Assembly: GCF_964213995.1 (NCBI RefSeq)
Contig: NW_027590119.1
Location: 1,364,001 to 1,428,000 of the forward strand
Direction: 5' to 3'
DNA length: 64,000 nt
Origin: Mustelus asterias
Lineage: Eukaryota
Made by a program: the position numbers and the translations under genes. The notes below the pieces were generated by a model. The model was not told the DNA's origin, made no database searches, and saw nothing but the letters and a program-made list of their open reading frames with translations. Below, one piece after another: positions 471 to 60,623 of this stretch. Position 1 is the first letter of the stretch. Each line of letters starts with the position of its first letter.

Positions 471-486
471 TGCTTGTCCAATAATG

Positions 487-7750: not shown

Positions 7751-7801
7751 GTACCAAATGGAGCGGCAGCTTGTCGTGTTAGACCCGGGCTGACTGCTGC
7801 C

Positions 7802-8050: not shown

Positions 8051-8100
8051 CCGCCATTGAGGCTGCATGTGGGAGGCCGGCAGGGATTGTGATCGGGGAG

Positions 8101-8350: not shown

Positions 8351-8371
8351 TTCCAAATTCGCCTGACTTCG

Positions 8372-11300: not shown

Positions 11301-11540
11301 AATTTCTTCAGCCAGAGAGTGGTGAATCTGTGGAACTCTTTGCTGCAGAAGGCTGTGGAGGTCAGGACATTGACTGTCTTTAAGACAGAGATAGATAGGT
11401 TCTTGATTAATGAGGGGATCAGGGATTATGGGGAAAAGGCAGGAGAATGGGGATGAGAAAAATATCAGCCATGATTGAATGGCGGAGCAGACTCGATGGG
11501 CCGAGTGGCCTAATTCTGTTACTGTGTCTTATGGTCTAAT
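8372..11540 (+). mobile_element. 5'-truncated CR1 LINE split by a Rex1 insertion (pieces 8372-8512 and ~10315-11540)
   Basis: RT sequence QHGFVKGRSCLTNLLEFFEE continues as VTNKLDKGE...LDFQKAFDKV...KFADDTK on the far side of the insert; frameshifted; CR1-type 3' tail. Confidence 0.9.
8513..10314 (-). mobile_element. Rex1/Babar-clade LINE fragment
   Basis: ORF 8764-9996: LNDYRPVALTSIMMKCFER, LDPLQFA, FADDTT, KKAHQRLYFLRRLRKF; 3' tail tgtgacaataataaatcaaatc. Confidence 0.85.
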
Positions 11541-11849
11541 GAGTTGAGACTGGGGTGGCGTCGGACGATGTCACTGAGGTGGAAATAGACAGTCTTGATG
11601 ATGATGTGGCTGGAAGCTCATCCTGGAGTGAAATATTTCACCATGGTTGTGAACAGCCTGGTTCCGGCTCCGACAGGGAGTGGAGTTTGTCGTGGGGACT
11701 GAAGACAATGGGTTCAGACTTCCCAGTATTTATATGGGTGAAGCTTCTGTTCTCTTAGTCCTGGATGTCAGACAAGTCAGGATGGTGTGTGGGTTGGAGG
11801 GGAACTTGGAGCTGATGGTGCTAACCACTGTGCCACCGTGCCGCAGAAT

Positions 11850-12325
11850 GCTAAATGGAATGAGAGAGAGAGAGTGTATGTGTGAGGGGCGTGGGTGGAG
11901 ATTTAAAGAATGTTCCATAGAAACTACAATTGTCTGTTTTGAATTTCTATCATGTGCTGACAGTGATGATTTTTGTAAACTCCTTTCAGTGGATATTGGA
12001 AGGAGAGGTTTTGACTGGAAAAGCACTGAGATTCTCACACCCGTATCAGAGTGTTCCAGTGCACTGATTGTGGAGAGACACAAGGACTCCGACACCATGG
12101 AGAAACCATGGAAATGTGGAGACTGTGGGAAGGGATTCAGAGCCCCATCTGAGGTGGAATCTCATCGACGCAGTCACACCGGGGAGAGACCGTTCATATG
12201 CTCCACTTGTGGGAAGGGATTCAATCATTCATCGAATCTGCTGAGACACCAGTGAATTCACACTGAGGAGGGGCTAGTCACCTGCTCACAGTGTGGGAAG
12301 GGAGTCAGAGATTCATCCACCCTGC
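11850..12325 (+). pseudogene. Truncated C2H2 ZNF (about 3 fingers)
   Basis: [16 protein letters not shown]..., stop at 12253 in finger 2; ends in a G-rich repeat. Confidence 0.85.
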
Positions 12326-12505
12326 GGAGGGAGGGGGGGGGGGGAAGAGCAAGGGGGGGAAAGGAGCGGGGGGGAGAGCAGGGGGGGATAGAGCGGGGAA
12401 GGGGGAGCAGGGGGGGAATAGAGCGGGGGGAAAGGAGCGGGGGGGAGAGCAGGGGGGGATAGAGCGGGGGGAAAAGAGCAGAGGGGGGGAAAGGAGCAGG
12501 GGGAG
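12325..12505 (+). repeat. G-rich ~16-bp degenerate tandem repeat (GAGC(A/G)GGGGGG...), G-quadruplex-prone
   Basis: More than 10 runs of 4-10 G; continues at 13022-13065, then (GA)n-rich sequence to 13140. Confidence 0.85.
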
Positions 12506-12509
12506 AAAG

Positions 12510-13017
12510 TATAGAATTTGTGTTTCGGAAGTCGGATCAAAAACTGAAGAGACACAGGTTTCTCCGAAAGCCGCCTTTATTGTATCGGAGGAGAGATCGC
12601 AAGACCATGCACATCCAGCATGGGTTTGTGAGTCTCTGTCTGGCTTACAAAACAGTTTCAGTTATACACGACAGAGATACATCCACATACTTCTGTTAGC
12701 CAATAAGGGCATAGCTGTAATGTTACATTTTGATTAGATTACTTTCAAGAACAAAAGACGATAGCCACGTAAGGACATGGCTATTAAAGTTTCTGATTAG
12801 ATTACTTTCAAGGACAAAAGGCCAATTGATAAGGCCCTGCCCTCTGAAGCCAGAACCACAATTACCTATCAGCAGTTTCTTTCACGTGATCATTAGTTTC
12901 GCTTGTCGCCCTCGCCTCAGGCCCTTTCCAAAACCAGTTTATCCCTCAACTGATTTCTAGTTACGCATCCCAATTTTAACCCTTTTCTCTTCTCAATCTA
13001 CCTTATACACATTCTCA
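12510..13017 (-). mobile_element. Solo ERV-type LTR
   Basis: 4-bp TSD AAAG (12506-09 and 13018-21); on the minus strand begins TGAGAATGTGT and ends ACAAATTCTATA; AATAAA and TATA-like GTATAAC on minus; internal ~60-bp direct repeat typical of U3. Confidence 0.7.
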
Positions 13018-13149
13018 AAAGAGCAAGGGGGGGAAAGGAGCAGGGGGGGGGGGGGGCGGGCGGGAGAGCAAGATTGAGAGAGAGAAAGATTGAGAGAGAA
13101 AGATTGACAGAGAGAGAGAGAGAAAGATTGAGAGAGAAAGAATCCAACC

Positions 13150-13905
13150 CCTGTAATCACTTGTTGGTGTCTCTGCAGGTTGGATGACCGATTGAATCCC
13201 TTCCCACACACAGAGCAGGTGAACGGTCTCTCCCCGGTGTGAACTCGTTGGTGTCTCCACCGTGTGGATGACCTCCTAAACCTCTTTGTGCAGTGAGAGC
13301 AGCTAAACGGTCTCACGTCAGTGTGAATGGGTTGGTGGTTCATCAGTTCCTGAGGGCTTTTGAAGCCACTCCCACAGTCAGAGCATTTAAAGGGTCTGTC
13401 TTGGGTGTGAGTGACCTTGTGGCTCAACAGGTTGGGCAACTGAGTGAATCCCTTCCCACACACAGAGCAGATGTACGGTCTCTCTCTGGCATGAACCCGT
13501 TGGTGTGTCAACAGATTGTTAACCGAGTGAACTCTTTCCCACAGTCAGAGCAGGTGAATGGCCTCTCCCCGGTGTGAACTCGCTGGTGTACCCGCAGGCT
13601 GGATGACCTTCTAAACCTGTTTGTGCTGTGAGAGCAGCTGAACGGTCTCTCCTCACTGTGAATGCGCTGGTGGGACACCAGTTCCCCAGAGCTTTTGAAG
13701 CTACTCCCACAGTCAGAGCATTTAAAGGGTCTCTCCTGGATGTGAGTGAGATTGTGTTTCAGCAGGTTGGATAACTGACTGAATCCCTTCCCACAGACAC
13801 AGCAGGTGAATGTCTCTCTCCAGTGTGACTGCGCCGATGAGTTTCCAGTGCAGATGGGAACCTGAATCCTTTCCCACAGTCCCCACATTTACACAATTTC
13901 TCCAT
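13150..13905 (-). pseudogene. C2H2 ZNF pseudogene, 9 fingers
   Basis: [10 protein letters not shown] start at 13905; frameshifts at ~13812 and ~13510; one Cys lost (SCSHS). Confidence 0.88.
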
Positions 13906-14675
13906 GGTGCGGGTGTCCTTGTGACTCTCCAGGCTTGACAATCAGTTCAGTTACAACATAACATGGGTGCGGTCTCTCTGCTGCAATGTATTTTCAGGCT
14001 GTTTAACTGGTTAAAGTTCTTCCCACAGTCACTCAGGTGTGTGCATGTTTCAGTGTGTGTGTGTCTCGGTGCTTTTCCAGTCACACTGATGTTTAAAATC
14101 TCCTGAAGCAGACAGAGCAGAGAAACATTTCCATTCTAGGTTCAAATGTCAATGATATTCAGGTCCCAATGAACTGAGTGACTCTGTTAGATTTTGATGT
14201 GAAGTTTGGTTTGATATTCATCTTTAAATTTTCGCCTTCTGATATCCTGCAAAAGGAATTTACAAAATTCACCACTGTCAGCACAGGATAGAAATTCAGA
14301 ACAGACAATTCCAGTTTCTATGGAACATTCTTTCCTCTCTTATTCCCCAAGAGCTGTAAATCTCCATCCCACACACTCTCCCTCCATTCTCACTCTGCTG
14401 TATCAAATATTCACCCTCCCAATTCTCCTGAAGGTGCTGATTGAGGCTGATTGACAGATCCATGCTCAATGCTTCCTGTTCTGGACACAGAGAGCTGGAA
14501 ATCTCCATGCAGGCTGCCAGACAGATATATGTCTATCTGTCTGGACTAACAATGTGTGGAATATACAGACCGAATTCACTTCCTTTCCCTTCAGTTGCTG
14601 CAAGTCCCCAATTTCCCCCAGAATGAGAAAAGAAATGGAAAGGGGGAAACATTGATTTCCTCCCAGATGTTGCCC

Positions 14676-16268
14676 TCTTTTTAGGTCAAACCCTAATAAA
14701 CCAAATAAACAAACTCAGATTAAATCAGGACAAAGTAAAAGGGGCAGCTCCCCAAAAAGGAGGGGGAACAGCCCGAACAGAAATCAAAGTACAAAGGAAA
14801 CTTAAAAACATCAAATTAAAATGTGATTATTAGGGTCAATAATGCACCCCAACCCCTGCGGTGCCCAGCGGGCGCGGAAAGCGTCAACCTCGCCCGTGGA
14901 CACCGCATGCTCCCTCTCCAGGGACACCTGGCCGCGAACGTAGCCGCGGTAGAGGGGAAGACAGTCAGGATGGACGGCCCCCTCGATCACCGGCTGCCTG
15001 GACCGGTAAATGGCGCGTTTCACCAGGAGCAGGTTCATGAGGAGGTCGCCATCCCAACCCTCCCCTCTCCGCACCGGGTGTCCGTAGATCAGGAGCGTGG
15101 GACTGAAGTGCAAACAAAATATCAATAAAAGGTTCTTTAGGAAAACATAAAGGGAGTGCAGCCTAAGACACACAACATAGACATGGTCCACGGACTCCAC
15201 AAGGCCACAGAAAGGGCAGTCTTTGGAGCCCGTGAACCAGTGAATCCTACGGTTGTGCAGCACTGCTGCATGCATCACCCTCCACCCCAGGTCCCAGACG
15301 TAAGTGGGGGAGATCCCTCCGTAGAGGGACCTCCAGCGGGGACCTCCGCCGCCCGGCGGCAACAAGGCCCACCATGGTGTACCCGGGCGACAGGCGAGGA
15401 GGCGGTAGTGGAAGGTGTGCAGCAGCAGCCCGCACAGGAAACGCCTCCGCGCGGTAGAAAAAGGCACGGAGGACATTTCCGCGAGGCGGCTCAGGCTGTG
15501 GGGCATCTCACCCAGGGAGGGGGGTTGAGGCTTTGGGCCAATGTGGAATTCTGTCCGAGCAGGGGAATGCTCGGGCGGGGTCCCACCGCACGCCTGCGCT
15601 GCCTTGGGTTTGCGTGCAGTTTCGGGGCTGAGCACGACCGTCCTAAGGTCTAGGATGGCTTTGGCCATGCGCCGGACGGTCGTCCCCGCGCGCTCAGCCA
15701 GCACGCGGGGACTCATCCAGCCCGCTCCTCCGCCATCGAGCACGTCCCCGATTCTGGTCACCCCGGCGTCCACAGCCCTCCTCTCCGCCAGCCACCTGAA
15801 GTCACGAGAGCCGCTACTCCTGACGGGGGAGAGCTGCGTCGCGAGGCGACCTTGTTCCAGACAGTGAGGAGGTCCTGGTAAAAGATGGGCAACTCCTGCA
15901 GGGCGGTCGAAGCACGCCCCAGTTCGATATGCAGGAGCTGCACATCATAATTGAGGCCGTGCCACTGGCGGAAGAAATACGTCGCCATGGCACACCACTG
16001 TGGAGGGGGCTCAACGTAAAGGTACCTCTGCAGGGCCTGGAGGCGGAAGGTCGCTATCTGAGTGCGGAGGCACACCAGACCTTGTCCACCCTCCTCAAGC
16101 GGGAGATGCAAAACCGCAGCAGGGACCCAGTGCAGTCAATTGTCCCAGAAGAACCGCAGGAGGGTTCTCTGGATATTGGCGACAATGCCAGGGGGAGGGG
16201 TCAAAGGGACCAGCCGGTACCACAGCATGGAGGCGACCAGCTGGTTTATGACGAGAACTCGCACCCGT
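14676..16268 (-). mobile_element. Tx1-clade (L1-like) retrotransposon, 3' part of ORF2 and 3' UTR
   Basis: LPLEEGGQGLVCLRTQIATFRLQALQRYL, DLGWRVMHAAV, zinc knuckle CPFCGLVESVDHVYVVC; GC-rich; internal deletion near 15790. Confidence 0.85.
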
Positions 16269-16489
16269 GAATGGTCACAAACACTCACCTCTGAAACAAT
16301 TTAACTGATTTTAATATTAAAATCTCCTGCTGGAGCCTGCAGCTGGAAAGATATCAGAAGCATTGGCATCAGAAAAAAATCTCCCAGTTGAGGAAATCCC
16401 CGGGGAGCGGGGATGATGTCACTGTGCAATTGTAAGTACGCGATGAGATCACAGACAGGAACACAGAATACCTGGGATTGTGCAAACCA

Positions 16490-16650: not shown

Positions 16651-16944
16651 GTACATGGAGGTGTCAAAGTTTACATGCTCTGTTTACACGTGTACAAGCT
16701 CTGACTATGGGTCATCCAGTCTCGAAACGTTGGTTCTATTCTCTCTCCACAGATGCTGTCAGATCTGCTGAGATTTTCCAGCATTTATTGTTTTTATTTT
16801 CCTTTCTTTTTCCTTCTCTACCACCGCTCTGCCTCATCAATAAGACATTGGGACTCAGGGTTGATGCAGTTTGATGGACAAGTTGTCTCCATTCTGAACA
16901 CTGGGGAACAAGCTCCTCCCACTGATTGACAACATTGCTCTCTA

Positions 16945-17330
16945 CAAACATGGCGGCCGCACGTGCGCACTGCTGCATATTGCCCCCAATAAAGATGGCG
17001 AACGTTAACCCGGGACGAACACGAGGAGCTGCAGCCCTGCTCGGTACAAACTGGGTCCGGGAAGTTCTCTTCCGCGGTTTGCGGCTTACACAACATGCTT
17101 CCGCAGCGTTTCCACCCACCTGGACGATCCATTGCTCTCTCCGTACCGCCAATCACCGCTAACAGATTTCCGAGCCCAAAACAAAAGCCGTTTCCCATCG
17201 CCATTACTCACACTGCGCATGCTCCAGTCAAAGCTGGCCCCGCCCCTCGTTCGTTCCCATTGGCACTGTCCCCTCTTCCCATTGGTCCGTGCTGCCGTCA
17301 ATCAGCCGGGCATTGTGACGGTGATTTGCT
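16945..17330 (-). promoter_or_regulatory. ZNF promoter cassette P3 (candidate promoter of ZNF 13150-13905); dyad deleted
   Basis: Paralog of 60-470 with the same motifs, minus ~35 bp that included the dyad. A consensus donor AG|GTGAGT lies on minus at 16289/16288. Confidence 0.65.
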
Positions 17331-17401
17331 GCTTGTCCAATAATGACAGTAAGAAGATTAACAACACCAGGTTAAAGTCCAACAGGTTTATTTGGTCGCA
17401 A

Positions 17402-19177
17402 ATGAATGACCAGGGTGAGGTTAGGGCCGGTCAAGGACAGTGGTGGGAACTTGTGTATGGAATCAGTAGAGATAGGCGAGGTGATGAATGAATACTTTTC
17501 TTCAGTGTTCACCAAGGAGAGGGGCCATGTTTTTCAGGAAGAGAAGGTGTTACAGGCTAATAGGCTGGAGGAAATAGATGTTCGGAGGGAGGATGTATTG
17601 GCAGTTTTGAATAAACTGAAGGTCGATAAGTCCCCTGGGCCTGATGAAATGTATCCTAGGATTCTTTGGGAGGCGAGGGATGAGATTGCAGAGCCTTTGG
17701 CTTTGATCTTTGGGTCCTCGCTGTCCACGGGGATGGTGCCAGAGGACTGGAGAGTGGCAAATGTTGTTCCTCTGTTTAAGAAAGGGAATAGAAATGACCC
17801 TGGTAATTATAGACCGGTTAGTCTGACTTCGGTGGTTGGTAAATTGATGGAAAAGGTCCTTAGGGATGGGATTTACGACCATTTAGAAAGATGCGGATTA
17901 ATCCGGGATAGTCAGCACGGATTTGTGAAGGGCAAATCGTGCCTCACAAATTTGATAGAATTTTTTGAGGAGGTAACTAGGTGTGTTGATGAAGGTAGGG
18001 CGGTTGATGTCATATACATGGATTTTAGTAAGGCGTTTGATAAGGTCCCCCATGGTCGGCTTATGATGAAAGTAAGGAGGTGTGGGATAGAGGGAAAGTT
18101 GGCCGATTGGATAGGTAACTGGCTGTCTGATCGAAGACAGAGGGTGGTGGTGGATGGAAAATTTTCGGACTGGAGGCAGGTTGCTAGCGGAGTGCCGCAG
18201 GGATCGGTGCTTGGTCCTCTGCTCTTTGTGATTTTTATTAATGACTTAGAGGAGGGGGCTGAAGGGTGGATCAGTAAATTTGCTGATGACACCAAGATTG
18301 GTGGAGTAGTGGATGAGGTGGAGGGGTGTTGTAGGCTGCAAAGAGACATAGATAGGATGCAAAGCTGGGCTGAAAAATGGCAAATGGAGTTTAACCCTGA
18401 TAAATGTGAGGTGATTCATTTTGGTGGGACTAATTTAAATGTGGATTACAGGGTCAAAGGTAGGGTTCTGAAGACTGTGGAGGAACAGAGAGATCTTGGG
18501 GTCCATATCCACAGATCTCTAAAGGTTGCCAGTCAAGTGGATAGAGCTGTGAAGAAGGCATATAGTGTGTTAGCTTTTATTAACAGGGGGTTGGAGTTTA
18601 AGAGCCGTGGGGTTATGCTGCAACTGTACAGGACCTTGGTGAGACCGCATTTGGAATATTGCGTGCAGTTCTGGTCACCTCACTATAAGAAGGATGTGGA
18701 AGCGCTGGAAAGAGTGCAGAGGAGATTTACCAGGATGCTGCCTGGTTTGGAGTGTCGGTCTTATGAGGAAAGGTTGAGGGAGCTGGGGCTGTTCTCTCTG
18801 GAGCGGAGGAGATTGAGGGGAGACTTAATAGAGGTTTATAAAATGATGAAGGGGATAGATCGAGTGAACGTTCAAAGACTATTTCCTCGGGTGGATGGAG
18901 CTATTACGAGGGGGCATAACTATAGGGTTCATGGTGGGAGATATAGGAAGGATATCAGAGGTAGGTTCTTCACGCAGAGAGTGGTTGGGGTGTGGAATGG
19001 ACTGCCTGCAGTGATAGTGGAGTCAGACACTTTAGGAACATTTAAGCGGTTATTGGATAGGCACATGGAGCACACCAGGATGGTAGGGAGTGGGATAGCT
19101 TGATCTTGGTTTCAGATGAAGGTCGGCACAACATCGTGGGCCGAAGGGCCTGTTCTGTGCTGTACTGTTCTATGTTC
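17402..19177 (+). mobile_element. Young 5'-truncated CR1 LINE with an uninterrupted RT ORF
   Basis: 565-aa open frame 17406-19103 ([42 protein letters not shown]); tail tgttctatgttc; absent from copy A. Confidence 0.95.
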
Positions 19178-20262
19178 AAACGTCACACAAGCTTTCGGAG
19201 CCTCAAGCTCCTTCTTCAGGTGAGTGGGAATTCTGTTCACAAACAGGGCATATAAAGACATAGACTCAATTTACAGAATAATGGTTGGAATGTGAATCCT
19301 TGCAGCTAATCAAGTCTTAAAGGTACAAACAATGTGAGTGGAGAGCTTCCACTCTAAACACGTTAAAGAAGCCATCCCCTACGGACACGCCCTCCGTATA
19401 CACAGGATCTGCTTGGGTGAGGAGGATCGCAACAGACACCTCCAGATGCTGAAAGATGCCCTCATAAGAACAGGATATAGCGCTCAACTCATCGATCGAC
19501 AGTTCCGACGCGCCACAGCGAAAAACCGCACCGACCTCCTCAGAAGACAAACACGGGACAAGGTGGACAGAGTACCCTTCGTCGTCCAGTACTTCATCGG
19601 AGCGGAGAAGCTACGGCATCTCCTCTGGAGCCTTCAACATGTCATTGATGAAGATGAACATCTCGCCAAGGCCATCCCCACACCCCCACTTCTTGCCTTC
19701 AAACAACCGCACAACCTCAAACAGACCATTGTCCGCAGCAAACTACCCAGCCTTCAGGAGAACAGTGACCACGACACCACACAACCCTGCCACAGCAACC
19801 TCTGCAACACGTGCCGGATCATCGACACGGATGCCATCATCTCACGTGAGAACACCATCCACCAGGTACACGGTACATACTCTTGCAACTCGGCCAAAGT
19901 TGTCTACCTGATACGCTGCAGGAAAGGATGTCCCGAGGCATGGTACATTGGGGAAACCATGCAGACGCTGTGACAACGGATGAATGAATACCACTCGACA
20001 ATCACCAGGCAAGACTGTTCTCTTCCTGTTGGGGAGCACTTGAGCGGTCACGGGCATTCGGCCTCTGATATTCGGGTAAGCGTTCTCCAAGGCGGCCTTC
20101 ACGCCACACGACGGCGCAGAGTCGCTGAGCAGAAACTGATAGCCAAGTTCTGCACACATGAGGACGGCCTCAACCGGGATATTGGGTTCATGTCACACTA
20201 TCTGTAATCCCCACAACTTGCCTGGACTTGCAGAGTCTCACTGGCTGTCCTGTCTGGACAGT

Positions 20263-20616
20263 GGGGCGGCGCGGTAGCACAGTGGTTAGCACTGCTGCTT
20301 TACAGCTCCAGGGACCTGGGTTCGATTCCCGGCTTGGGTCACTGTCTGTGTGGAGTTTGCACGTTCTCCTCGTGTCTGCGTGAGTTTCCTCCGGGTGCTC
20401 CGGTTTCCTCCCACAGTCCAAAGATGTGCGGGTTAGGTTGATTGGCCATGCTAAAATTCCCCTTCGTGTCCTGAGATGCGTAGGTTAGAGGGATTAGTGG
20501 GTAAATATGTAGGGATATGGGGGTAGGGCCTGGGTGGGATTGTGGTCGGTGCCGACTCGATGGGCCGAATGGCCTTTTTCTGTGCTGTAGGGTTTCTATG
20601 ATTCTATGAGTCTATG
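20263..20616 (+). mobile_element. HE1-like tRNA-derived V-SINE with a CR1-type tail
   Basis: A box GGTAGCACAGTGG, B box GGTTCGATTCC, V-domain GGGTTTCCTCCGGGTGCTCCGGTTTCCTCCCACAGTCCAAAGA, (ttctatga)n tail; absent from copy A. Confidence 0.9.
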
Positions 20617-22598
20617 AATATACATCTCTTTAGCCTGTCTTGATGCTGTCTCCACTCACATTGTTTGTACCTTTAAGACTTGATTAGCTGTAAGTATTTG
20701 CATTCCAACCATTATTCTGTTAATTGAGTTTGTGTCTTTATATGCCCTGTTTGTGAACAGAATTCCCACTCACCTGAAGAAGGAGCTTAAGACTCTGAAA
20801 GCTTGTGGCTTTTGCTACCAAATAAACCTGTTGGACTTTAACCTGGTGTTGTTAAACTTCTTACTGTGTTTACCCCAGTCCAACGCCGGCATCTCCACAT
20901 TAGTAATAACAATGACAGAGTCTCAGTGTAACAATGACACACACAGGCTCCAATACAATCAGAGTGGAGATGGGGCACAGAGACAACACAGCAAAGCACT
21001 GACTTACTCTGAGTGTAACAATGACACACACAGGCTCCAATACAATCAGAGTGGGGATGGAGCATAGAGACAACACAGCAAAGCACTGACTTGCTCTGAG
21101 TGTAACAAATACAATGTTTGTTAAAATATTTAGAGTCACGTTGCAGTATGTTAGTGAACACAGCATTAGATCCAATGTAATGGTAACACAATCAGTATCT
21201 CGTGCACCATAACCAAAGTTTAGGTTTCATTTGATAGTGTGAGTGAGTCGTGGTCTATTAGTATGATGTATTTAAATTCCGATGTGTGTTACTCTGCCAC
21301 TGTCAGTATCAGACAATAACCTGTCTGTTATTCCAATTCTGCTGTATTTTACAACTGCAGTTTCAGTGTCTCTGAGGTCATTTTAACTGCAGATAATCTG
21401 ACATTAAGGGAGACAAGAGGCCCAACAAACATTTGATTATAATAGGAGGACAAAGTGCAAGGGAACAATGATATTTTAAGGTGTCTGTGTTATGGTGAGT
21501 GTCACTGGGAGGTGAGTGATAAAATACAAGTGGAAACATCATGACAGAGACATGCGACTGACTCGGCCTGACTGAGAGCTGTTATACTCGAGGCGAGAAT
21601 AATGAGGACATGGGGAACTCCTGAGATTTCTGATATCTGAGGTGTATCTGTTAGAGGAACTGAAAATAATCAGTTCCTCCTCATGGTCATCTCCAGTTCT
21701 CAAGTTACACAGACACACAGGAAAGAGATCTGACAGCTCATCAAACCCAATATTTTAATCTTCTGTTTGAGACACATTATAATCGAAAAGATCAAATATT
21801 AAAACCTGAGGAGAGATACATTCAGAATGTCACAAGGATGAGTGAACTGTCTAATTAATCCCATTCACCATAACTTTGCCAATTTATCCTCTGCAAGTAT
21901 TTATCCAATTCCCTTTGAAAGCTACTATCAAACTTGCTTCTAGCACCTGTCAGTTTGTGCATTCCAGATCATATCAAGTTATTGTGTAACAAATTCTCCT
22001 TATCACCCCCTCCAGTTCTGTTGTCAATTATATTAAATCTCTGTATCCTCTGCTTACAGACCCTCCTGCACCGAGGAAATCGATTCTCTCCATCGACAGA
22101 CCCTCCTGCTCCTGGGAGATAATTTCTCTCCATTGACACTATCATAAATTATTTGTCATTTTAAACTCCTCTATTAAATCTCCCCATTACATTCCCTAAT
22201 CTAAGGTGGATAACCCATGTTTCTCCTGCCCTGAAGAATTATATGGACTCAAAATGTTAACTCTGAACAGATGCCGCCGGACCTGCCGGGTTTTTCTGCT
22301 TTTCTCCCTGTCATTCCTTCTATAATCAATCAGAAACTCTTCATGATTTTGAACATCTTGATCAAATAGGAACACACAGAGCGTGAGAGAGGTACAGAGG
22401 GAGAGACAGAAAGACTAAGAGAAAAATTGAGAAAGATTTTAAAAAGCAGAAAGATGAGGTGGTCAAAGATAAAAGCTGAGAAACAGAGGAAACAAGCAAT
22501 ACAGAGAGAATGATCTAGAATATAAGGGAGCAGGCTATCAGTTCCCAGCTATGGGGAGCAGAGTCGGCATCTCCACGGTAGAGCAGAGGGGACTCAGT

Positions 22599-22940
22599 GG
22601 GTGGCACGATAGCACAGTGGTTAGCACTGCTGCTTCACAGCTCCAGGAACCTGGGCTCGATTCCCGGCTCGGGTCACTGTCTGTGTGGAGTTTGCACATT
22701 CTCCTCGTGTCTGCGTGGGTTTCCTCTGGGTGCTCTGGTTTCCTCCCACAGTCCAAAGATGTGTGGGTTAGGCTGATTGGCCATGCTAAATTTGCCCCTT
22801 AGTTTTCTGAGAAGTGTAGGTTAGAGGGATTAGCGGGTAAAAATATGGAGGGATATGGGGGTAGGGCCTGGGTGGGATTGTGGTCGGTGCAGACTCGATG
22901 GGCCGAATGGCCTCTTTCTGCACTGTAGGGTTTCTATGAT
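22599..22940 (+). mobile_element. HE1-like V-SINE
   Basis: Same family as 20263; 5-bp TSD TCAGT; absent from copy A. Confidence 0.9.
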
Positions 22941-24828
22941 TCAGTAACTGATCCAAAGACACAGCTGGCTATATCTGCGAATGGAAACTCTGAACAGAAA
23001 TAACTGACTCATTTGTAAATGTCACCACAATGTGACCTGTGTGACTCTGCCCTGACTCTGTGGACAGATATCGGCCGCATTGACAGATGTTCTCAACAGA
23101 TTGTTGTGCCTGGATTTATTTTCTGCTCAGAAGCGAGATGTGAGGTTTGGAACCGGCAGCAGAGAAACAGGAAGTTGTGTTACCTGAGAATGAAACAGCC
23201 GGCATCAGTTTGATGTTATAACTGTGAACAGTCTTCCTGCCTGTGAGGGTGAACTCACTCTGACAGCATCAAGAACAACCACACAGATTGCTACTGGTCT
23301 CAGCATTACATTCACCTCCATTCCCATTTTAAACAATAAAGAAAGGAGATTATTTGGATTTTTAACACATTCACTGAATTGGGAGATGGACTGAGGGTCA
23401 TCACTGGGAGAAATGAGGAGGGATTAGAGAACAAATGAGTTTTCCCAAAGAGGTTTATTAGAAAAGAGGAGATTTAAAGTGAGTCAGGGCCTGTCAGAGG
23501 AAGTGGGAGAGAGAAACAGAGAGGATTGAATCTCCATCAATTAGATGTTTTCTCAGACAGCAAAGAGAGATGAAGTGTGTTTGTGCTTTTTCAGAGAGAG
23601 ATAACGAGAGAGAGAAAACAATGAATAAGTTTAAGCATTATCTGAAATAGGAAGGTTAAATGAGTGAGTGTTTGAAAGAACGATAGAGAGACATTAAGTG
23701 ACGAAGACAGTTTCTGAGAGGAGAGAGGTTAAGTGAAAATGAGAGAGGAGTGAGGTTAGAGTGTAAGAGAGGTGGAAGGTGAGGTAAGTGTGAGTGAATG
23801 CCTGGAGAGAGAGAGAGACGTTCAGTGAGTGTTAGAGAGATGAGAGATGTTGAGCGATTGAGTTTCTGAGAGAGAGGAGATGTTGAGTGAGTGAATGTCT
23901 GAAAGAGAGGAGAGGAGGTTCACACACCCAGGGATCACTGAGAATAATCAAAATAAGGAGATCACCCAGAAAACTACCAACAGGAAACTTCAGCTGAACA
24001 CATCACTCATTCTGAAATGGTCAGTCAGGGCTCTGATGCTGCTCAGCTTCTCTCTGTTCTGTTTATAATGGTTAAAGGCTGATAGGAGTGAGGTTTATTT
24101 AGAAGGATAGTGTATGGGAAGCACACAACAAAACTGAGAATTCTTGGACACACACTGCAGCTCCTTCTCTATCTGGGAATCAAATTGTTGTCTCATTGTC
24201 CCAGCAGTTAACAGGGTCCTTTGAACTTCTCCAGCTGCTACTTTAATGCAGACTTCAACCAATTTATTTGAAGCCAGTTTCTGTTCAATAAACCAGGACT
24301 GACACACACACACATTAAAATGTTTTAGACTTTTTTTCATTTTTAGTCTGGAAACCTAAACCTGCCGTTTCACTCTCAGTCAGGAATAGATCCCAGTTTT
24401 ACACCAATCTTTGACAGCATGTTTCCAGCATTCACCGTTGTTCTTCCTGACTCTAAACACAGTTGTAAAGGACCTTCTTTTCCGTGTCTAGGAGCTCGGA
24501 ACCATGGAAAAGAGCGACTGGGACACATTTTTTTCACACCTCAGGATTCACCCACACAGGGACTTTGCTGTCAGTGAAAAGTGACGAAAAAGACCAAAGT
24601 GCTGTTTGTCCCTCTCGGCGAGACCCTGAAGGACTGGGTCAAGAATGAAGTTCTGTTCCTACTGTATGATCCTCCCTCAGATTGCCCTTTCTGAGCTCCA
24701 GCCTGGTGACGTTAAACACTCAAATGGAAAAGACAAAAATCTACAACAATGATTCAATCAAATGTCTATTTCACATTTATTCAGAATATCAAATCTCAAC
24801 AGAAGAAAAAAGTCAGAGTGAACATGAT

Positions 24829-25978
24829 TCAGACCTGGATATGATTAACAGCATCGATAAGTGTAGAATCCAAACCTTGCAGTCCCTTGTGAACTCGCCG
24901 GTGTGTTAGCAGGTGGGATGACTGAATAAATCCCTTTCCACAGACATTACAGGTGAACGGCCTCTCCCCAGTGTGAACTCGCTGGTGTTTCAGAAGATAA
25001 GATAAATGAGAAAATCCCTTCCCACAAACAGAGCAGGTAAATGGCCTCTCCTCACTGTGAACTCTCTGGTGTGTCAGCAGGTTGGATGACTGACTGAATC
25101 CCTTCCCACACGTGGAGCAGGTGAACGGCCTCTCCCCAGTGTGAACTCGCTGGTGTGTCAGGAGATTGTATGAACGGGTGAATCCCTTCCCACACACGGA
25201 GCAAGTGAATGGCCTCTCCTCACTGTGAACCTGCTGGTGTGTCAGGAGATTGTATGAACGGGTGAATCCCTTCCCACATTCAGAGCAGGTGAATAGTCGA
25301 TCCCCTGTGTGGAGCTGCTGGTGTATCAGAAGGTTGGATGAATTAATGAATCCCTTCCCACAGTCTGAGCAGGTGAAGGGCCTCTCCCCAGTGTGAATTC
25401 TCTGGTGGTTCAGTAGGGCAGATGGGCGGCTGAATCCCTTCCCACACACACACAGCAGGTGAATGGCCTCTCCCCAGTGTGAGCATATTGGTGCGTCAGC
25501 AGATCTTTTTTACTTTTAAAGCTCTTCTCACAGTGGGAACAATTAAAAAGTTTGTTATCAGAGCGAACAAGTTGATGTGTCTGCAAGTGGGATGACTGAA
25601 TGAATTCTTTCCCACACACAGAGAGGTGAACGGTCTCTCCCCAGTGTGAATACGTTGGTGTGTCAGCAGATCCTTTTTGCATTTAAAACTCTTCTCACAG
25701 TCAGAACATGTAAACAGTTTCTCATCAGTGTGAACAAGTTGGTGTGTCACAATGTGGGATAAGCGAGTGAATCCCTTCCCACACACAGGGCAGGTGAACG
25801 GCCTCTCCCCAGTGTGAACCCATTGGTGAATCAGAAGATTGTATGAATGGGTGAATCCCTTCCCACAAACAGAGCAGGTGAACGGTCTCTCCCCAGTGTG
25901 ACTGCGCCGATGAACTTCCAATTGTGATGGGAAACCGAATCCCTTCCCACAATCCACACATTCCCACGGTTTCTCCAT
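24829..25978 (-). pseudogene. C2H2 ZNF, 13 fingers, frameshifted paralog of 39017-39997
   Basis: 1-nt deletion at ~25623 and 2-nt (TG) insertion at ~25445; net +1, so not compensating. Confidence 0.85.
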
Positions 25979-37769: not shown

Positions 37770-38390
37770 CACCCACCCGCCACATTTATCATTCCCCGCG
37801 CGCCGCCCTCTACCTTGTATTGTTCTCGCTTCCAAGTTGAAACCGTCCGTCCGCCGCCGCCATTACCCGCACTGCGCATGCTTCAGGTCCCGCCCCTCAT
37901 TCACTCCGATTGGTTGGAGGACCAGCCGCTCCCGCTCGGTCCTCCAGTCCCGCCCCCTCTTCCTATTGGTCCGGAGCTGCCGTCAATCAGTCCCCGGGCA
38001 TTGTGATGTGGAGCATGCGCAGTGTCATTGCTGGCCTTGGCGCTTGTTTGTCCCGGAGAAGCGGAGTCAGCGTTAGGCGGTGGCTGGGAGGATTTGGAAA
38101 CACTTTGTGGATCCGCAAACCCTTCAGAATCATTGTCAGCTCCCTGGTTTGCAGCTGCGGGGCTTCTCCCTCCCTCCCTCCCGGGAACAGGCCCAGGTTA
38201 ACGGCCCCATCCTGGCTCAGCCACTGGAGGATGGTTCACATCAGAGGATGGGGGAGGGGGACAATAAATAAGAGGTTACACTTTGGCCTCAAATCAATGA
38301 GGACTCTGATCTCTGGGAAGGAAGGAAACCCTGGGAGGTGGGCGGGAAGGATTCACAAACACTCGCTGGAGGCCCCAACATCCCCAATAA
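37770..38390 (+). promoter_or_regulatory. ZNF promoter cassette P5 plus leader
   Basis: Dyad at 37915-37946; NRF1/CCAAT/GC motifs; possible weak donor CAG|GTTAAC at 38197 and acceptor ttttacag at 38658. Confidence 0.75.
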
Positions 38391-39016
38391 GACCCATTGG
38401 TTTTATTGTCAGTCTGCAGACAGGAGCTGGAGAACTGAACCCAGACAGAGGAGAGGGAGGGAGAAAACTGGGAGTGGAGGAAAGAAATGGTGAGATGGGT
38501 TTGGATTTCAGCCCAGGGAGGAGGGAGAGTGTGTGGGACGGAGATTTACAGATTTGGGGGAACAAGAGAGGAAAAAATGTTCCAGACGAACTAGAATTGT
38601 CTGTTCAGAGTTTCTATCGTGTTCTGACAGTGATGACTTTTCTAAACTGTTTTTACAGGATATTGGAAGTGAAAGATTGGCAGACAGAAAATTCAAACCG
38701 GACATCACATCTGACAAAGTCATTCAGTTCCTTCGGAGCTGAATATCATTGGTCTTTGAATATAGAAAGAGAAATATTTGTCTGTTCTGCCTGTGGGCAA
38801 AGAAATTAAACATCAGTGTGACCGGAAAAGCATCGAGACAAACACACACCCGAGTGAGAGTGTTCCAGTGAACTGAATGTGGAAAGAGCTTTAACCAGTT
38901 ACACAGCCTGAAAAAACATCACAGTTCACAGCAGGGTGAAACTACGTGTATGTTGTGTGTGTGGATGAGGCTTGAACTGATCATCCAACCTGGAGAAACA
39001 CAAGGACACCCGCACC

Positions 39017-39997
39017 ATGGAGAAACCGTGGAAATGTGTGGATTGTGGGAAGGGATTCGGTTTCCCATCACAACTGGAAGTTCATCGGCGCAGTCACACT
39101 GGGGAGAGACCGTTCACCTGCTCCGTCTGTGGGAAGGGATTCACCCATTCATACAACCTTCTGACTCACCAACGGGTTCACACTGGGGAGAGGCCGTTCA
39201 CCTGCCCTGTGTGTGGGAAGGGATTCACTCGCTCATCCCACATTGTGACACACCAACTTGTTCACACTGATGAGAGAATGTTTATATGTTCTGACTGTGA
39301 GAAGAGTTTTAAATGCAAAAAGGATCTGCTGACACACCAACGAATTCACACTGGGGAGAGACCGTTCACCTGCTCTGTGTGTGGGAAAGGATTCATTCAG
39401 TCATCCCACTTGCAGACACATCAACTTGTTCACTCTGATAACAAACTTTTTAATTGTTCCCACTGTGAGAAGAGCTTTAAAAATAAAAAGGATCTGCTAA
39501 CGCACCAATATGCTCACACTGGGGAGAGGCCATTCACCTGCTGTGTGTGTGGGAAGGGATTCAGCCGTCCATCTGCCCTATTGAACCACCAGAGAATTCA
39601 CACTGGGGAGAGGCCCTTCACCTGCTCAGACTGTGGGAAGGGATTCACTCGTTCATCCAACTTATTGAATCACCAGCGAGTTCACACTGGGGAGAGGCCG
39701 TTCACCTGCTCTGTGTGTGGGAAGGGATTCAGTCAGTCATCCAACCTGCTGACACACCAGAAAGTTCACAGTGCGGAGAGGCCATTTACCTGCTCTGTCT
39801 GTGGGAAGGGATTTTCTCATTTATCTTATCTTCTGAAACACCAGCGAGTTCACACTGGGGAGAGGCCGTTCACCTGTAATGTCTGTGGAAAGGGATTTAT
39901 TCAGTCATCCCACCTGCTAACACACCAGCGAGTTCACAAACGACTGCAAGGTTTGGATTCTACTCTTAATGATGCTGTTAATCATATCCAGGACTGA
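39017..39997 (+). CDS. Intact C2H2 zinc-finger protein, 11 fingers plus a 19-aa tail, 326 aa
   Basis: ACCATGG start, 11 complete fingers, no frameshift, upstream promoter cassette. Confidence 0.92.
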
Positions 39998-40924
39998 ATC
40001 GTGTTCACTCTGACAGTCTTCATCCGTTGAGGTTTAATATTCTGAATAAATATGAAATAGACCAGCTTTGTTTTTTAAAATTGTTGTCGATTTTTGTCTT
40101 TCCCACCTGACCCCACATCACCAGGCTGGAGCTCAGAAAGGACAATCGGGGGAGGATCATATGGCAAACAGGACGCAGTCCTTCAGGGTCACAGAGAGGG
40201 ACAAACAGCACTTTGCTCTTCCTCATCTCTCTTCACGACAGCAAAGTACCCGTGTGGTTTAATCCTGAGATGTGCAAGAACCTCAGTCGCTCCCTTCTAT
40301 GTTTCAGCGCTCCTAGACCAGGAACAGAAGTTCCTTTACAACTGTGTTTAGAGTCAGGAAGAACAACAGTGAATGCTGGTAGGATGCTGCTAAATCAGAG
40401 ATTGGTGCAAAACTCGGATCTGTTCCTGACTGAGAGTGAAACGGCAGGATTAGATTTCCAGACTGAAAATGCAGAAAAGTCTAAAATATTTTAATGTGTT
40501 TGTGTCAGTGCCAGTTTATTGAACAGAAACCAGTTTAAAATAAATTGGTTAAAGTCTGCATTAAAGTAGCAGCTGGAGAGTTCAAAGGAACCTGTTATCT
40601 GCTGGGACAATTGGACAACAATTTGATTCCCAGATAAAAAGGAGCTACAGCGTGTCCAAGAATTCCCAGTTTTATTGATGAGGCTTCCCACACATTGTCC
40701 TTTTAAATAAACCTCACTCCTATCAACCTTTAACCATTATAAACAGAATAGAGAGAAGAGTGAAGCTGTGCCTGTCCCTTTAACTGGAAACTGAACAGCA
40801 TCAAGCCCCAACTGTCCCTTTAAGAATGAATGATGTGTTCAGCTGAAGATTCCTATTGGTAGTTTTCTGGGTGATCTCCTTATTTTGGATTATTCTCAGT
40901 GATCCTCAGTTGTGTGAACCTCTT

Positions 40925-46399: not shown

Positions 46400-46770
46400 T
46401 TCACTGCGGGAGCTGCTGCGCATGCGCACTGTCAGGCTGTGATTGGAGCATGCGCGGTGCGGGTGCTGCAGCTTGATGGAAGCGCGAGGCGGTCGTGTGG
46501 CTTTCGCAACGGGTGAAATAAAACACCCAGTGTGGGTGGGGAACGGAGCCGGTGGGTGGAGAGATTTCATTACCACCGGACTCGGCTCGCAAAGTTCGAG
46601 TAAAAATCTAACGGTCCCCAATTTGGACCGAGACGGTTGTTCTCTCGGTGTCGGGCCGGGCTCGCCGGCCGCCATCTTTATAAGGGGCAATGTTCCGGCA
46701 AGGGCACTGCCATCTTTATAAGGGGCAATGTTCCGGCAAGGGCGCTGCCATCTTTATAGGGGGCAATACC
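46400..46770 (+). promoter_or_regulatory. ZNF promoter arm P6 with a triplicated YY1-type site
   Basis: Perfect NRF1 TGCGCATGCGCA, ATTGG, and three 38-bp units starting GCCATCTT at 46671, 46709, 46747. Confidence 0.7.
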
Positions 46771-49499: not shown

Positions 49500-50390
49500 G
49501 AATGAGGGGGCGGGGCTGGAGGACCGAGCGAGAGCGGCTGGTCCTCCAACCAATCGGAGTGAATGAGGGGCGGGGCTGAGGGCGAGTTGCACTGTGGGGA
49601 TCTGGAGCATGCGCAGTGCCGATCACTGAGGATTGAGGCGGTTGAGGAAATATTCAGTCCGGGCGATAACACCGGGTAAATCAGGAATGAGTGATGGAGC
49701 CGGTGGGTGGGCGGACTTGGAGGCTTCATAAAAGTCCCGTGTAGGCCGCAAGCCCCCAATAGGAAGCTCGAATTCGATATTTGAACCGTTGAAAGGTTGT
49801 TCGGGCTTTTCCCCCGATTCAGGCCCGGGTGAACGACCGCCATCTTGACAGTGTGCGGCCGAGCGCGCGCGCAGACAGAGGGAGCTCCATGCTCAGCCCC
49901 CTCCGCCCCGATTCAGTCTGATTGGTTGGAGGACCAGCCGCTTGTGCTCGGTCCTCCAGCCCCGCCCCCTCCTCCTATTGGTCCGGAGCTGCCGTCAATC
50001 AGCTCCCGGGCATTGTGATGTGGAGCATGCGCAGTGTCATTGCTGTCCTTGTCCCGGAGAAGCGGAGTCAGCGTTAGGCGGTGGCTGGGAGGATTTGGAA
50101 ACACTTTGTGGATCCGCAAACCCTTCAGAATCATTGTCAGCTCCCTGGTTTGCAGCTGCGGGGCTTCTCCCTCCCTCCCTCCCGGGAACAGGCCCAGGTT
50201 AACGGCCCCATCCTGGCTCAGCCACTGGAGGATGGTTCACATCAGAGGATGGGGGAGGGGGACAATAAATAAGAGGTTACACTTTGGCCTCAAATCAATG
50301 AGGACTCTGATCTCTGGGAAGGAAGGAAACCCTGGGAGGTGGGCGGGGAGGATTCACAAACACCCGCTGGAGGCCCCAACACCCCCAGTA
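49500..50390. promoter_or_regulatory. Two promoter cores in opposite orientation (P7, P8) plus leader
   Basis: Dyads at 49517-49548 and 49927-49958; NRF1, CCAAT, GC and YY1 (CGCCATCTT) motifs; leader 50050-50390 near-identical to 38050-38390. Confidence 0.75.
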
Positions 50391-51274
50391 AAAAGCTGCA
50401 GCTCCCGGGTTTGCAGCTTTTTCCCGGGAGAGAGTTGGGGAAGTTTTGTGGAGACAATTCCCGGCTGGTTCAGTTAGTGGTCAATGAAGCTCAGAAATCC
50501 TGAGTCAGGATCCTCATTGGGTGGTTGTTTTATTAAAATATTATTATTCATCTGTTGAAGAAAATATTAATTTGTTTTGAAGAATCATTTTTATAGCGTT
50601 TGTGAAAATGTCCATTAAAATAGCCATTTTTCCAATGTATTTCTGATGAGAATTTTAATATTACTGATTTGGGAATTGATTCTCGGGAATGGTCATTCTG
50701 AAAATGATTATGTTTTAATTTACTCCATAATGCCAGAAGTCAGTTTGTATTTCAAATGTAATTTAGAATATCTGGGAGCAAATGTTAAAATGAGGTTTGA
50801 GACACCAGCTGCCATTACTTCCTGTGACTGATGATACCTTTGTGCCTGTGCAGGAGGTAATTCCCCTGGTGCTGTGGCACAAATAAAATGGAGCCTTTCC
50901 TCGGAACAGGTCCGTGTTAACGGTCACCGTGTTGTTTCAGTGGTGAGCAGGGGACGTGTGGCCATTGTGGTAACAACAGAGTCGGTGGGACTTCATGTCC
51001 CCTGACCTTAAAAGAAAATAATTGACTCCTTGGTTGTACAGTCAATCTGCACATGGTCTGGAGAACTGAATCCAGCCAGAGTGACAAGGCAGAGGGAGCT
51101 GGTCTCAGAGTGGAGACATGAAATGGTGGAGATGGGGCAAGGAGTTTGATTTAGACCAGGGACAAGAGAGAGTGTGTGGGATGGAGATTATAGCTCAAGA
51201 TAAATGAGATGAAGAAGTGTTCCATGGAAACTCGAATTGTCTGTTATGAATTCGTTTTTTAAGCTCTTTTTGCA

Positions 51275-52515
<1,241 letters not shown>

Positions 52516-52639: not shown

Positions 52640-53528
52640 TGTTGTGGGTTTAATCTCAGTTGTTTGGATTTAATCTCAGTTGTTTGGATTTAATCTCAGT
52701 TGTTTGGGTTTAAACCCAGTTGTTGTGGGTTTAATCTCAGTTGTTTGGATTTAATCTCAGTTGTTTGGGTTTACTCTCCGTTATTTGGGTTTAATCTCAG
52801 TGGTTTGGGTTTAATATCAGTTGTTTGGATTTAATCTCAGTTGTTGTGGGTTTAATCTCAGTTGTTTGGATTTACTCTCCGTTATTTGGGTTTAATCTCA
52901 GTGGTTTGGGTTTAATATCAGTTGTTTGGATTTAATCTCAGTTGTTTGGATTTAATCTCAGTTGTTTGGATTTAATCTCAGTTGTTTGGGTTTAATCTCA
53001 GTTGTTTGGGTTTAATCTCAGTTGTTTGGGTTTAATCTCAGTTGTTTGGGTTTAATCTCAGTTGTTTGGGTTTAATCTCAGTTGTTTGGGTTTAATCTCA
53101 GTTGTTTGGATTTAATATCAGTTGTTTGGGTTTAATCTCAGTTGTTTGGGTTTAATCTCAGTTGTTTGGGTTTAATCTCAGTTGTTTGGGTTTAATCTCA
53201 GTTGTTTGGGTTTAATATCAGTTGTTTGGGTTTAATATCAGTTGTTTGGGTTTAATATCAGTTGTTTGGATTTAATCTCAGTTGTTTGGGTTTAATATCA
53301 GTTGTTTGGGTTTAATATCAGTTGTTCTGGGTTTAATCTCAGTTGTTTGGGTTTAATATCAGTTGTTTAGGTTTAATCTCAGTTGTTTTGGGTTTAATCT
53401 CAGTTGTTTGGGTTTAATATCAGTTGTTCTGGGTTTAATCTCAGTTGTTCTGGGTTTAATATCAGTTGTTTGGGTTTAATCTCAGTTGTTTGGGTTTAAT
53501 CTCAGTTGTTTGGGTTTAATATCAGTTG
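52640..53528. repeat. 20-bp satellite, ~44 copies (GTTGTTTGGGTTTAATCTCA)
   Basis: Direct inspection. Confidence 0.97.
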
Positions 53529-53869
53529 TTAATATCAGGGATTTGTTCCCAGGAGCAGGCTGAGGGTAAGAGAGTGGGTTTTCTGACTTTAATTAATTAT
53601 TTATTTTTTCAGTTAATTTTGGGTTTAAAATCGGAGGTTTTTTTCAAAACCGGAAGTCGGGCCAGGAGAGGCCTGGGGAAGTTTTTGGAGGGTTTAAAAG
53701 CGCACCAAAGTATACAGCGGGCAGCATCGTAGCGGGCAGCAGAGTGAGTGGGAAGTTGAGTGAGCTGTCAGGGCTTTGGCTCACAGGGCTTGGACGAGCA
53801 GGGGTGAGTTTTTGTTTCCTTACACTCTTATTAACTTTTCACTGTCTTACTTGACATAAAGTGTCCAGT

Positions 53870-58600: not shown

Positions 58601-58719
58601 ATTGTATTTTTGGTTTTGAGAGTGTGGGCTGCTGAAAAGGAAATCACGACCCATTATGAACAAATCAAGGAATATGCTGTTTTATTCTGTCAGCCATTTA
58701 CTGGGCGAGCCGGCACTGT

Positions 58720-60623
58720 AATGTTCACCATTTTATATTCAAATCTGGGGGGGATAATGTTCACTGTTTTATATTCGGGTCTGGGGGGGATAATGTTCAC
58801 TGTTTTATATTCGGGTCTGGGGGATAATGTTCACTGTTTTATATTCGGGTCTGGGGGGGATAATGTTCACTGTTTTCTATTCGGGTCTGGGGGATAATGT
58901 TCACTGTTTTATATTCGGGTCTGGGGGATAATGTTCACTGTTTTATATTCGGGTCTGGGAGATAATGTTCATTGGTTTAAATTTGGGTCTGGGGGGGATA
59001 ATGTTCACTGTTTTATATTCGGGTCTGGGGGATAATGTTCACTGTTTCATATTCGGGTCTGGGGGTGATAATGTTCACTGTTTTATATTTGAGTCTGGGG
59101 GGGATAATGTTCACTGTTTTATATTCGGGTCTGGGGGAGAATGTTCACTGTTTTATATTTGGGTCTGGGGGATAATGTTCACTTTTATATTCGGGTCTGG
59201 GGGTGATAATGTTCACTGTTTCATATTTGGGTCTGGGGGTGATAATGTTCACTGTTTCATATTCGGGTCTGGGGGGGATAATGTTCACTGTTTTATATTC
59301 GGGTCTGGGGGGGATAATGTTCACTGTTTTATATTCGGGTCTGGGGGGGATAATGTTCACTGTTTTATATTCGGGTCTGGGGGATAATGTTCACTGTTTT
59401 ATATTCGGGTCTGGGGGATAATGTTCACTGTTTTATATTCGGGTCTGGGGGGGATAATGTTCACTGTTTCATATTCGGGTCTGGGGGTGATAATGTTCAC
59501 TGTTTTATATTTGGGTCTGGGGGATAATGTTCACTGTTTTATATTCGGGTCTGGGGGGGATAATGTTCACTGTTTTATATTCGGGTCTGGGGGGGATAAT
59601 GTTCACTGTTTTATATTCGGGTCTGGGGGTGATAATGTTCACTGTTTTATATTCGGGTCTGGGGGATAATGTTCACTGTTTTATATTCGGATCTGGGGGA
59701 TAATGTTCACTGTTTTATATTCGGGTCTGGGGGGGATAATGTTCACTGTTTTATATTCGGGTCTGGGGGATAATGTTCACTGTTTTATATTCGGGTCTGG
59801 GGGATAATGTTCACTGTTTTATATTTGGGTCTGGGAGATAATGTTCACTGTTTTATATTCGGGTCTGGGGAGGATAATGTTCACTGTTTTATATTCGGGT
59901 CTGGGGGATAATGTTCACTGTTTTATATTCGGGTCTGGGGGGGATAATGTTCACTGTTTTATATTCGGGTCTGGGGAGGATAATGTTCACTGTTTTATTT
60001 TCGGGTCTGGGAGATAATGTTCACTGTTTTATATTGGGGTCTGGGGGGGATAATGTTCACTGTTTTATATTCAGGTCTGGGGGATAATGTTCACTGTTTT
60101 ATATTCGGGTCTGGGGGATAATGTTCACTGTTTTATATTCGGGTCTGGGGGGGATAATGTTCACTGTTTTATATTCGGGTCTGGGGGATAATGTTCACTG
60201 TTCTTTATTTGGGTCTGGGGGGGATAATGTTCACTGTTTTATATTCGGTCTGGGGGATAATGTTCACTGTTTTATATTCGGGTCTGGGGGAGTTAATGTT
60301 CACTGTTTTATATTCGGGTCTGGGGGATAATGTTCACTGTTTTATATTCGGGTCTGGGGGGGATAATGTTCACTGTTTTATATTCGGGTCTGGGGGGGAT
60401 AATGTTCACTGTTTTATATTTGGGTCTGGGGGGGATAATGTTCACTGTTTTATATTCGGGTCTGGGGGGATAATGTTCACTGTTTTATATTCGGGTCTGG
60501 GAGATAATGTTCACTGTTTTATATTCGGGTCTGGGGGGGATAATGTTCACTGTTTTATATTCGGGTCTGGGGGGGATAATGTTCACTGTTTTATATTCGG
60601 GTCTGGGAGATAATGTTCACTGT
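58720..60623. repeat. 32-34-bp satellite, ~57 copies (GATAATGTTCACTGTTTTATATTCGGGTCTG5-7)
   Basis: Direct inspection; unit length varies with the G run. Confidence 0.97.

Follow-up and report, generated by a model that had tools for sequence, protein, structure and literature searches.

How does a dead zinc-finger gene come to share a promoter-proximal block, almost base for base, with three genes to which it is only distantly related? This question is raised by a cluster of C2H2 zinc-finger (ZNF) genes and gene fragments, with segmental duplications and satellites, in the 64,000 nucleotides of shark DNA analysed here (the window). Four loci are concerned, which we call A (7 kb, minus strand), B (26 kb, minus), C (38 kb, plus) and D (50 kb, plus). 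The first-pass annotation of this DNA had proposed that a promoter and first-exon module is copied between ZNF genes, by gene conversion or as a duplicated cassette, or else is held under very strong constraint as a structured 5′ leader. Our comparisons of the four loci indicate that repeated non-allelic gene conversion, with the promoter at its centre, is likely to have maintained the uniformity of the block.

A, B and C are paralogous over the whole gene, with about 92% identity across 2.2-2.4 kb. Their coding sequences (CDS) are 95.5-96.2% identical, with a pS of 0.085-0.097 and a pN of 0.026-0.035. Gene D is 74-75% identical to these three across the acceptor, the exon-2 start and the first fingers (69% by BLAST, 80-82% once gap columns are dropped). 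The start codon of D has been removed by an 11-bp deletion, and three-frame translation reveals at least three frameshifts and one in-frame stop; it is a pseudogene. The gene at 51275-52515 had been called distant and decayed, and so it is. The broader statement, that coding and flanking DNA are diverged at all four loci, holds for D but not for A, B and C.

A search with the 60 N-terminal residues of the intact 39-kb gene returned 106 matches, among which the named ones at 70-79% identity are nearly all from sharks (Pristiophorus, Heptranchias, Heterodontus, Scyliorhinus, Chiloscyllium and Cetorhinus). A Pfam scan of four proteins found finger domains only and no KRAB domain. The genes at A-D appear to be C2H2 genes of an elasmobranch type, KRAB-less in the exons scanned, with a further upstream exon possible. 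The gene families lost in cartilaginous fish are enriched in KRAB-bearing ones (PMC8455134).

The cluster holds several other features. The 5′ part of exon 2 (38660-39016 in C, with equivalents in other ZNF genes) is a decayed finger-coding relic, in which TGA stops occur at matching places in paralogues of about 70-75% identity, ahead of the shared start. As its frames are broken, it is probably an inherited untranslated region. Positions 1-14479 and 16885-33194 form a tandem segmental duplicate, a patchwork ranging from about 90% to over 99% identity (11.3-12.2 kb). A GC-rich stretch at 14810-16300 (minus), within the intron of a gene at 13-14 kb, resembles a retrotransposon fragment by eye. 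Satellites with units of 20 bp and 36 bp lie at 52640-53530 and 58719-60623, and a 28-bp array carrying TGACGTCA, which we take to be CRE-like, is found at 8096-8351 and 27878-28102.

The block that D shares with A, B and C covers about 490 bp (49903-50391) and falls into two layers. In the younger (50050-50391) D is 98.8-99.4% identical to the other loci, in the older (49903-50049) 92.5-93.9%, and upstream of 49903 its similarity to C drops to 46-48%. The near-identity between 50050-50390 and 38050-38390 that first drew attention is confirmed: D 50049-50347 and C 38048-38346 are the same at all 299 bp and, apart from two satellites and one finger array, which were excluded, no exact match in the window is longer. 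Four differences come next, at 50348, 50364, 50382 and 50388. Over D 50050-50391 as a whole, C differs at 4 of the 342 sites. A (7064-7405, minus) and B (26607-26948, minus) differ from D at two sites each, in agreement with the earlier remark that 7060-7410 and 26610-26950 are nearly the same. Private substitutions in D set the layers apart, with eight in the adjacent 147 bp and none in the 342 bp (Fisher p = 6e-5). Relationships in tract and flank conflict, the leader of D being 98.8-99.4% identical to the others and its gene 74-75%. On its left the young tract is bounded by an 11-bp indel, on its right by a 630-bp presence/absence breakpoint. Homology-dependent conversion would stop at heterology in this way.

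Table 1. Features of the four loci and of the leader family (positions in the window).
Feature	Position	Strand	Remarks
Gene C CDS	39017-39997	+	Intact, 11 C2H2 fingers, no KRAB match
Gene A finger array	5434-6433	-	Three frameshifting deletions, near 6099, 5986 and 5841
Gene B finger array	24889-25978	-	Two frameshifting indels, near 25624 and 25454
Gene D exon 2, decayed C2H2 gene	51276-52515	+	Start codon lost, frameshifts, stop
Youngest tract in D, putatively homogenised	50049-50391	+	Equals four-copy consensus, no private substitution
Older layer in D, promoter-like	49903-50048	+	Eight private substitutions, 11-bp deletion at right end
Block only in D, 630 bp	50392-51021	+	Unit 2 3′ remnants at 50399-50418 and 50898-50923; absent from A, B and C
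Leader unit 1	50019-50218	+	Family donor-like site near 50080 degenerate
Leader unit 2	50325-50420	+	Crosses the 50391 junction in D; predicted donor-like GT at 50339-50340
Leader unit 0, upstream of D	49600-49859	+	Same family, diverged
Inverted 71-bp promoter copy	49504-49574	-	98.6% identical to A/B, 90% to D's own direct copy
Diverged family member (control)	16980-17229	-	Duplicate at 87-336, 95.9% identical
Divergent-strand leader of A promoter (control)	7567-7811	+	Duplicate at 27111-27353, 96.2% identical
Diverged family member	46441-46690	+	Upstream of ZNF gene at 47.4-48.4 kb
Low-divergence tract, locus C	37858-38479	+	Maximum-likelihood bounds; 2-unit ranges 37853-37901 and 38465-38485
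Low-divergence tract, locus A	6975-7596	-	Bounds projected from C
Low-divergence tract, locus B	26518-27139	-	Bounds projected from C

The elements of the block follow the order promoter-like segment, leader unit 1, spacer and leader unit 2. Within the promoter-like segment are motifs that we take to be CCAAT-like, GC-box-like and NRF1-like. All 11 motifs in the window to which we give the name NRF1-like have a donor-like GGTGG 55-104 bp downstream, and in A, B and C two outward-facing copies make a bidirectional-promoter-like arrangement. As the donor-like site of unit 1 is degenerate, a long predicted first exon, with its end at 50338, is plausible. The block is probably the promoter, a probable non-coding first exon and the start of the intron of an elasmobranch C2H2 subfamily.

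The leader family is an old one, with further members at 37761-37887 and at the places given in Table 1 (unit 0, the two controls with their duplicates and the member at 46441). Distinct members are mostly 39-64% identical; units 1 and 2 are 73% identical in a pairwise alignment with gaps and 58-59% in another comparison. Unit 0 carries at 49839 a motif that is presumably YY1-like, and in another leader a motif that we likewise assume to be YY1-like is triplicated in a 38-bp tandem repeat (46671-46767, plus). The inverted promoter copy lies 330 bp from the direct copy of D. Being closer to A and B than to the copy of D, it may be a second short homogenised patch. Between the members of a head-to-head pair of ZNF genes (33353-35117, plus, and 32013-33194, minus), one of which has an intact 16-finger array, we found no unit of the family.

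D was also said to retain what looked like an old leader of its own, on the strength of motifs near 50400 and 50903. These motifs do exist: 50399-50418 matches 50138-50157 at 19 of 20 positions, and the motif near 50903 matches at 81% over 26 nt. They are not a separate leader. A family HMM built without unit 2 matches D 50325-50420 at model positions 100-193, whereas its match to the A/B/C counterpart covers positions 97-167 only. When the 3′ part of unit 1 was aligned to D 50392-50450, the score exceeded that of all 2,000 shuffles, compared with p = 0.38 for the intron of C. Since unit 2 runs in register through 50391, what looked like an 'old leader' is the distal half of a unit that begins inside the shared block. 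The 50903 motif taken alone gives a weak HMM match (E = 0.11) and a local alignment above all 2,000 shuffles. After 38390, the alignment of C to D picks up again near 51022; the junction carries an AATAA-like microhomology, and the intervening block in D includes an AT-rich stretch (50420-50890, 36% GC). It appears from this alignment that A, B and C deleted about 630 bp that D keeps.

Locus D is one part of the pattern; the other is a trough of low divergence among A, B and C themselves. A change-point fit on these three loci placed it at about 620 bp, with 14 of 622 columns variable, compared with 12-15% next door. Variable columns number 7 of 341 for the core. The intron exceeds this with 32 of 269 (p = 1e-6), as does the 5′ part of exon 2 with 55 of 355 (p = 1e-10); the CDS has 60 of 957 and the 3′ flank has 124 of 876. 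Leader identity might have equalled flanking identity once the loci were aligned, a possibility raised in the first-pass annotation, and instead the core is far less variable than its flanks. In a permutation test none of 10,000 replicates was as low as the observed minimum (341- and 456-column windows). Pairwise differences in the trough number 7-12 of 622, more uniform than nonsynonymous sites. Non-CpG columns are 2.1% variable in the trough and 13.5-14.1% just downstream, so an absence of CpG decay does not explain it, and reduced CpG mutation was rejected as a sufficient cause. The tract has too few sites (seven S>W and three W>S changes) for its GC bias to be informative.

The trough reaches about 90 bp past the homology with D, so D is not its source. 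The A-B duplicon has further windows with at most three mismatches in 342 bp (near 5.2, 8.8 and 11.0-12.2 kb), so the identity of A and B is not by itself exceptional. The sister leaders within the same duplicon stand at background divergence (95.9% and 96.2% identity, about 4% divergence like the flanks). Sites private to A, B and C number 12, 8 and 100 in the 3′ flank, versus 35, 22 and 29 in the intron and 5′ part of exon 2, and a GENECONV-like test gave significant agreeing runs for A-B (39993-40149) and B-C (38490-38521). The GENECONV check that had been suggested therefore brought out mosaicism elsewhere in the cluster, and by its design this run test is blind to a tract common to all three sequences.

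Two independent protein records, P0001 and P0109, provide an outside view of the block. They were found by searching with the open frame of the core (two of the eight candidates in one search), lie on contigs of 1,235 and 809 bp, and were compared as protein only. P0001, at 85-87% residue identity, contains indels, switches frame and reads on across the D-type junction. P0109 has the A/B/C-type junction; its first 59 residues are those of the consensus, and its divergence begins at about C 38470, which is the fitted boundary of the trough. The undeleted D-type junction is supported as old by the protein comparison with P0001, whose divergence with indels also means that the leader can diverge. 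The identity of P0109 would point to constraint if this record came from a distant species. A third candidate, P0002 (29% identity in five stretches), was treated as a spurious match.

Copying between ZNF genes by gene conversion, as the first-pass annotation had suggested, accords with an identity in the tract far above that of the flanks and with discrete ends at heterology. The history of the block could have run as follows. An older exchange would have aligned the 490 bp of D with the A/B/C lineage. Later conversions would have made A, B and C uniform together with one or more further copies, and the latest event would have overwritten D 50049-50391, stopping where homology ends. The donor of this last event was probably B-like, judging by one site: a G at 50388 is common to B and D, while A, C and both protein records carry the other state, and polarisation from P0001 at the amino-acid level suggests that the G is derived. 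For D, receiving the tract was probably neutral. The trough possibly owes something to purifying selection on the promoter as well; A and B, with a pN/pS near 0.3, were maybe functional until recently, so selection can contribute to theirs. The least supported step is that breaks or their repair would favour open, CpG-rich promoter DNA. Such a preference can be inferred from the PRDM9 literature: in the available text of one paper promoter-like features are where recombination is concentrated once PRDM9 has been lost or is partial (PMC8892340), and in that of another SSXRD is reported as lacking or only weakly present in the PRDM9 of cartilaginous fish (PMC5519329).

Could selection have done this without conversion? 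In that case 340-620 bp would have been frozen, after one old transfer, by a function at the sequence level, e.g. dense factor binding, a regulatory RNA or pairing between copies. Such constraint would suit a trough that spans promoter, predicted exon 1 and intron start, as well as the boundary that recurs in P0109, and the promoter layer of D (about 93%) is similar in age to the A/B/C split (pS about 9%). We regard it as improbable, because nearly every site would have to be constrained, more tightly than the protein and in a gene without a start codon, while the sister leaders drift freely, P0001 stands at 85-87% at the residue level with indels, and no signal of folding or covariation is seen. 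Folding energies compared with shuffles gave z-scores of -1.55 (6/100 shuffles), 0.51 and -1.19, and the family consensus has an energy of -3.2 kcal/mol with an unfavourable covariation term of +1.24. Covariation analysis, which had been proposed as a check, found no compensatory signal in the leader family, and four near-identical copies give no power. Rfam had no match to the tract at gathering score (nearest E = 4.2). With an unremarkable fold, no Rfam match, sister leaders at background and a diverged P0001, the suggestion of a structured 5′ leader under strong constraint is not upheld. The sole Rfam match over the whole window is a tRNA at 36883; ARAGORN and Rfam both identify 36882-36956 (plus) as tRNA-Val(GAC)-like, possibly a pseudogene or SINE head.

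A promoter swap would have brought unit 1 and the promoter newly into D, through one long recombination in which unit 2 and the promoter would have served as homology arms, or through a mobile element. It would account for a similarity to C of only 46-48% upstream of 49903, and the identity between units 1 and 2 is similar in depth to the split between D and the A/B/C genes. Yet a single event cannot yield two layers, the more diverged P0001 already has unit 1 with an undeleted unit 2, and a repeat search run without a repeat library saw no terminal repeats or target-site duplication at the block ends, nor was a tRNA or Rfam-type head found on the block. We consider a swap very unlikely as the whole explanation; as the origin of the older layer it is possible, and compatible with gene conversion. 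The variant in which a cassette was inserted before an intact old leader fails, since unit 2 is in register across the junction and P0001 has the same junction. Transposable elements (SINE, LTR or MITE) were rejected, as no element ends were found and homology runs through the right end. To an artefact of assembly or polishing, in which reads from another copy overwrote the tract or D was misjoined, we give even less credence. D does equal the consensus exactly, and several genes carry indels of 1-2 bp that are possibly sequencing errors. However, private bases survive in the adjacent 93% segment of D and, for A, B and C, in the core; the D junction continues the leader family in register, and both types of junction, as well as the boundary, recur in the independent records, which makes a misjoin or polishing artefact unlikely. 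The poorest candidate is conversion of the first exon from an RNA or cDNA template, which we hold to be extremely improbable. In its favour, the exact tract of D starts close to the likely start site, a little way downstream of the NRF1-like motif, and the exact match of C ends 8 bp past the donor-like site. Against it, A, B and D remain identical for about 50 bp beyond the donor-like site, and the trough in A/B/C covers promoter DNA upstream along with some 140 bp of the predicted intron. Promoter-centred gene conversion between DNA copies thus remains the explanation that we favour.

A stop-free frame of 322 codons (37841-38809, plus) crosses the promoter, leader and intron of C. In A and B the frame stays open as well, until roughly where exon 2 starts, and a frame of this length is reached in 5 of 1,000 simulations. 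A coding reading was rejected: variable sites show no bias by codon position (3/4/4 and 10/11/11), P0001 switches frame, and there is no Pfam match. None of 64 candidates was a longer protein, and the frame is probably fortuitous.

The mechanism is already known, and the shark promoter case is one cluster in which the striking recipient is a dead gene. It nevertheless offers a clear case of concerted evolution confined to the promoter, in a large gene family that has received little study; its layers are dated and its tract ends visible to the base. A more far-reaching idea, which we regard as rather doubtful on these comparisons, is that shark ZNF clusters contain a standing hotspot of promoter conversion, through which one variant would sweep many loci, distant paralogues included. 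If so, finger arrays would diversify while the regulatory front end evolves in concert, and subfamilies could be re-wired by a few hundred bases of conversion. The first-pass annotation had supposed that new finger arrays might enter a common expression programme in this way; the only distant recipient in this cluster no longer has a start codon. If general, this would explain how shared expression is kept across expanding ZNF clusters. It would also offer a way to ask whether recombination in cartilaginous fish, whose PRDM9 is reported as partial or weakly complete in the available text of one study (PMC5519329), is drawn to promoter-like DNA.

We found no literature on promoter conversion in shark ZNF clusters, in a search whose scope left out most subscription papers. 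The comparisons that follow draw on the available parts of the papers cited. Clusters of recently duplicated ZNF genes are reported in the catshark (PMC11979771). Mouse KRAB-ZNF genes resemble the shark case in their tandem clusters, segmental duplication and decayed units. They differ in that the promoters of one cluster are markedly divergent despite similar genes, the opposite of the pattern here, and in that KRAB is absent from the four window proteins scanned (PMC5363842). The zebrafish FiNZ-ZNF genes are likewise a large clustered family with shared promoter classes and first exons so similar that one morpholino is predicted to hit 447 of 684 genes, but there the shared first exon carries the translation start; the terms 'gene conversion' and 'shark' have 0 occurrences in the available text (PMC10547256).

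Closer parallels come from gene conversion itself. SIGLEC11 and SIGLEC16P share a recurrent 5′ conversion tract of 98-99% identity, compared with about 93% in the flanks. As in our case, a non-functional allele and 5′ untranslated DNA are involved, and a change of expression has been proposed. That tract is about 2 kb long, includes coding exons and concerns two genes, whereas the shark ZNF tract is non-coding only and involves at least four loci, one of them far more distant (PMC5701461). The mouse V1R genes show unbroken identity peaks of 500-1000 bp around the start site in clustered paralogues, and in the A and G subfamilies substitution is low between paralogues, not orthologues, with gene conversion as a possible cause (PMC1955453). 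The likeness lies in the promoter-centred peaks. Start sites were mapped and orthologues tested for V1R, while ours is a sequence comparison of paralogues; the ZNF case differs further in its CpG-rich, bidirectional-looking promoter and in a peak that extends to a pseudogene of 74-75% identity (PMC1955453).
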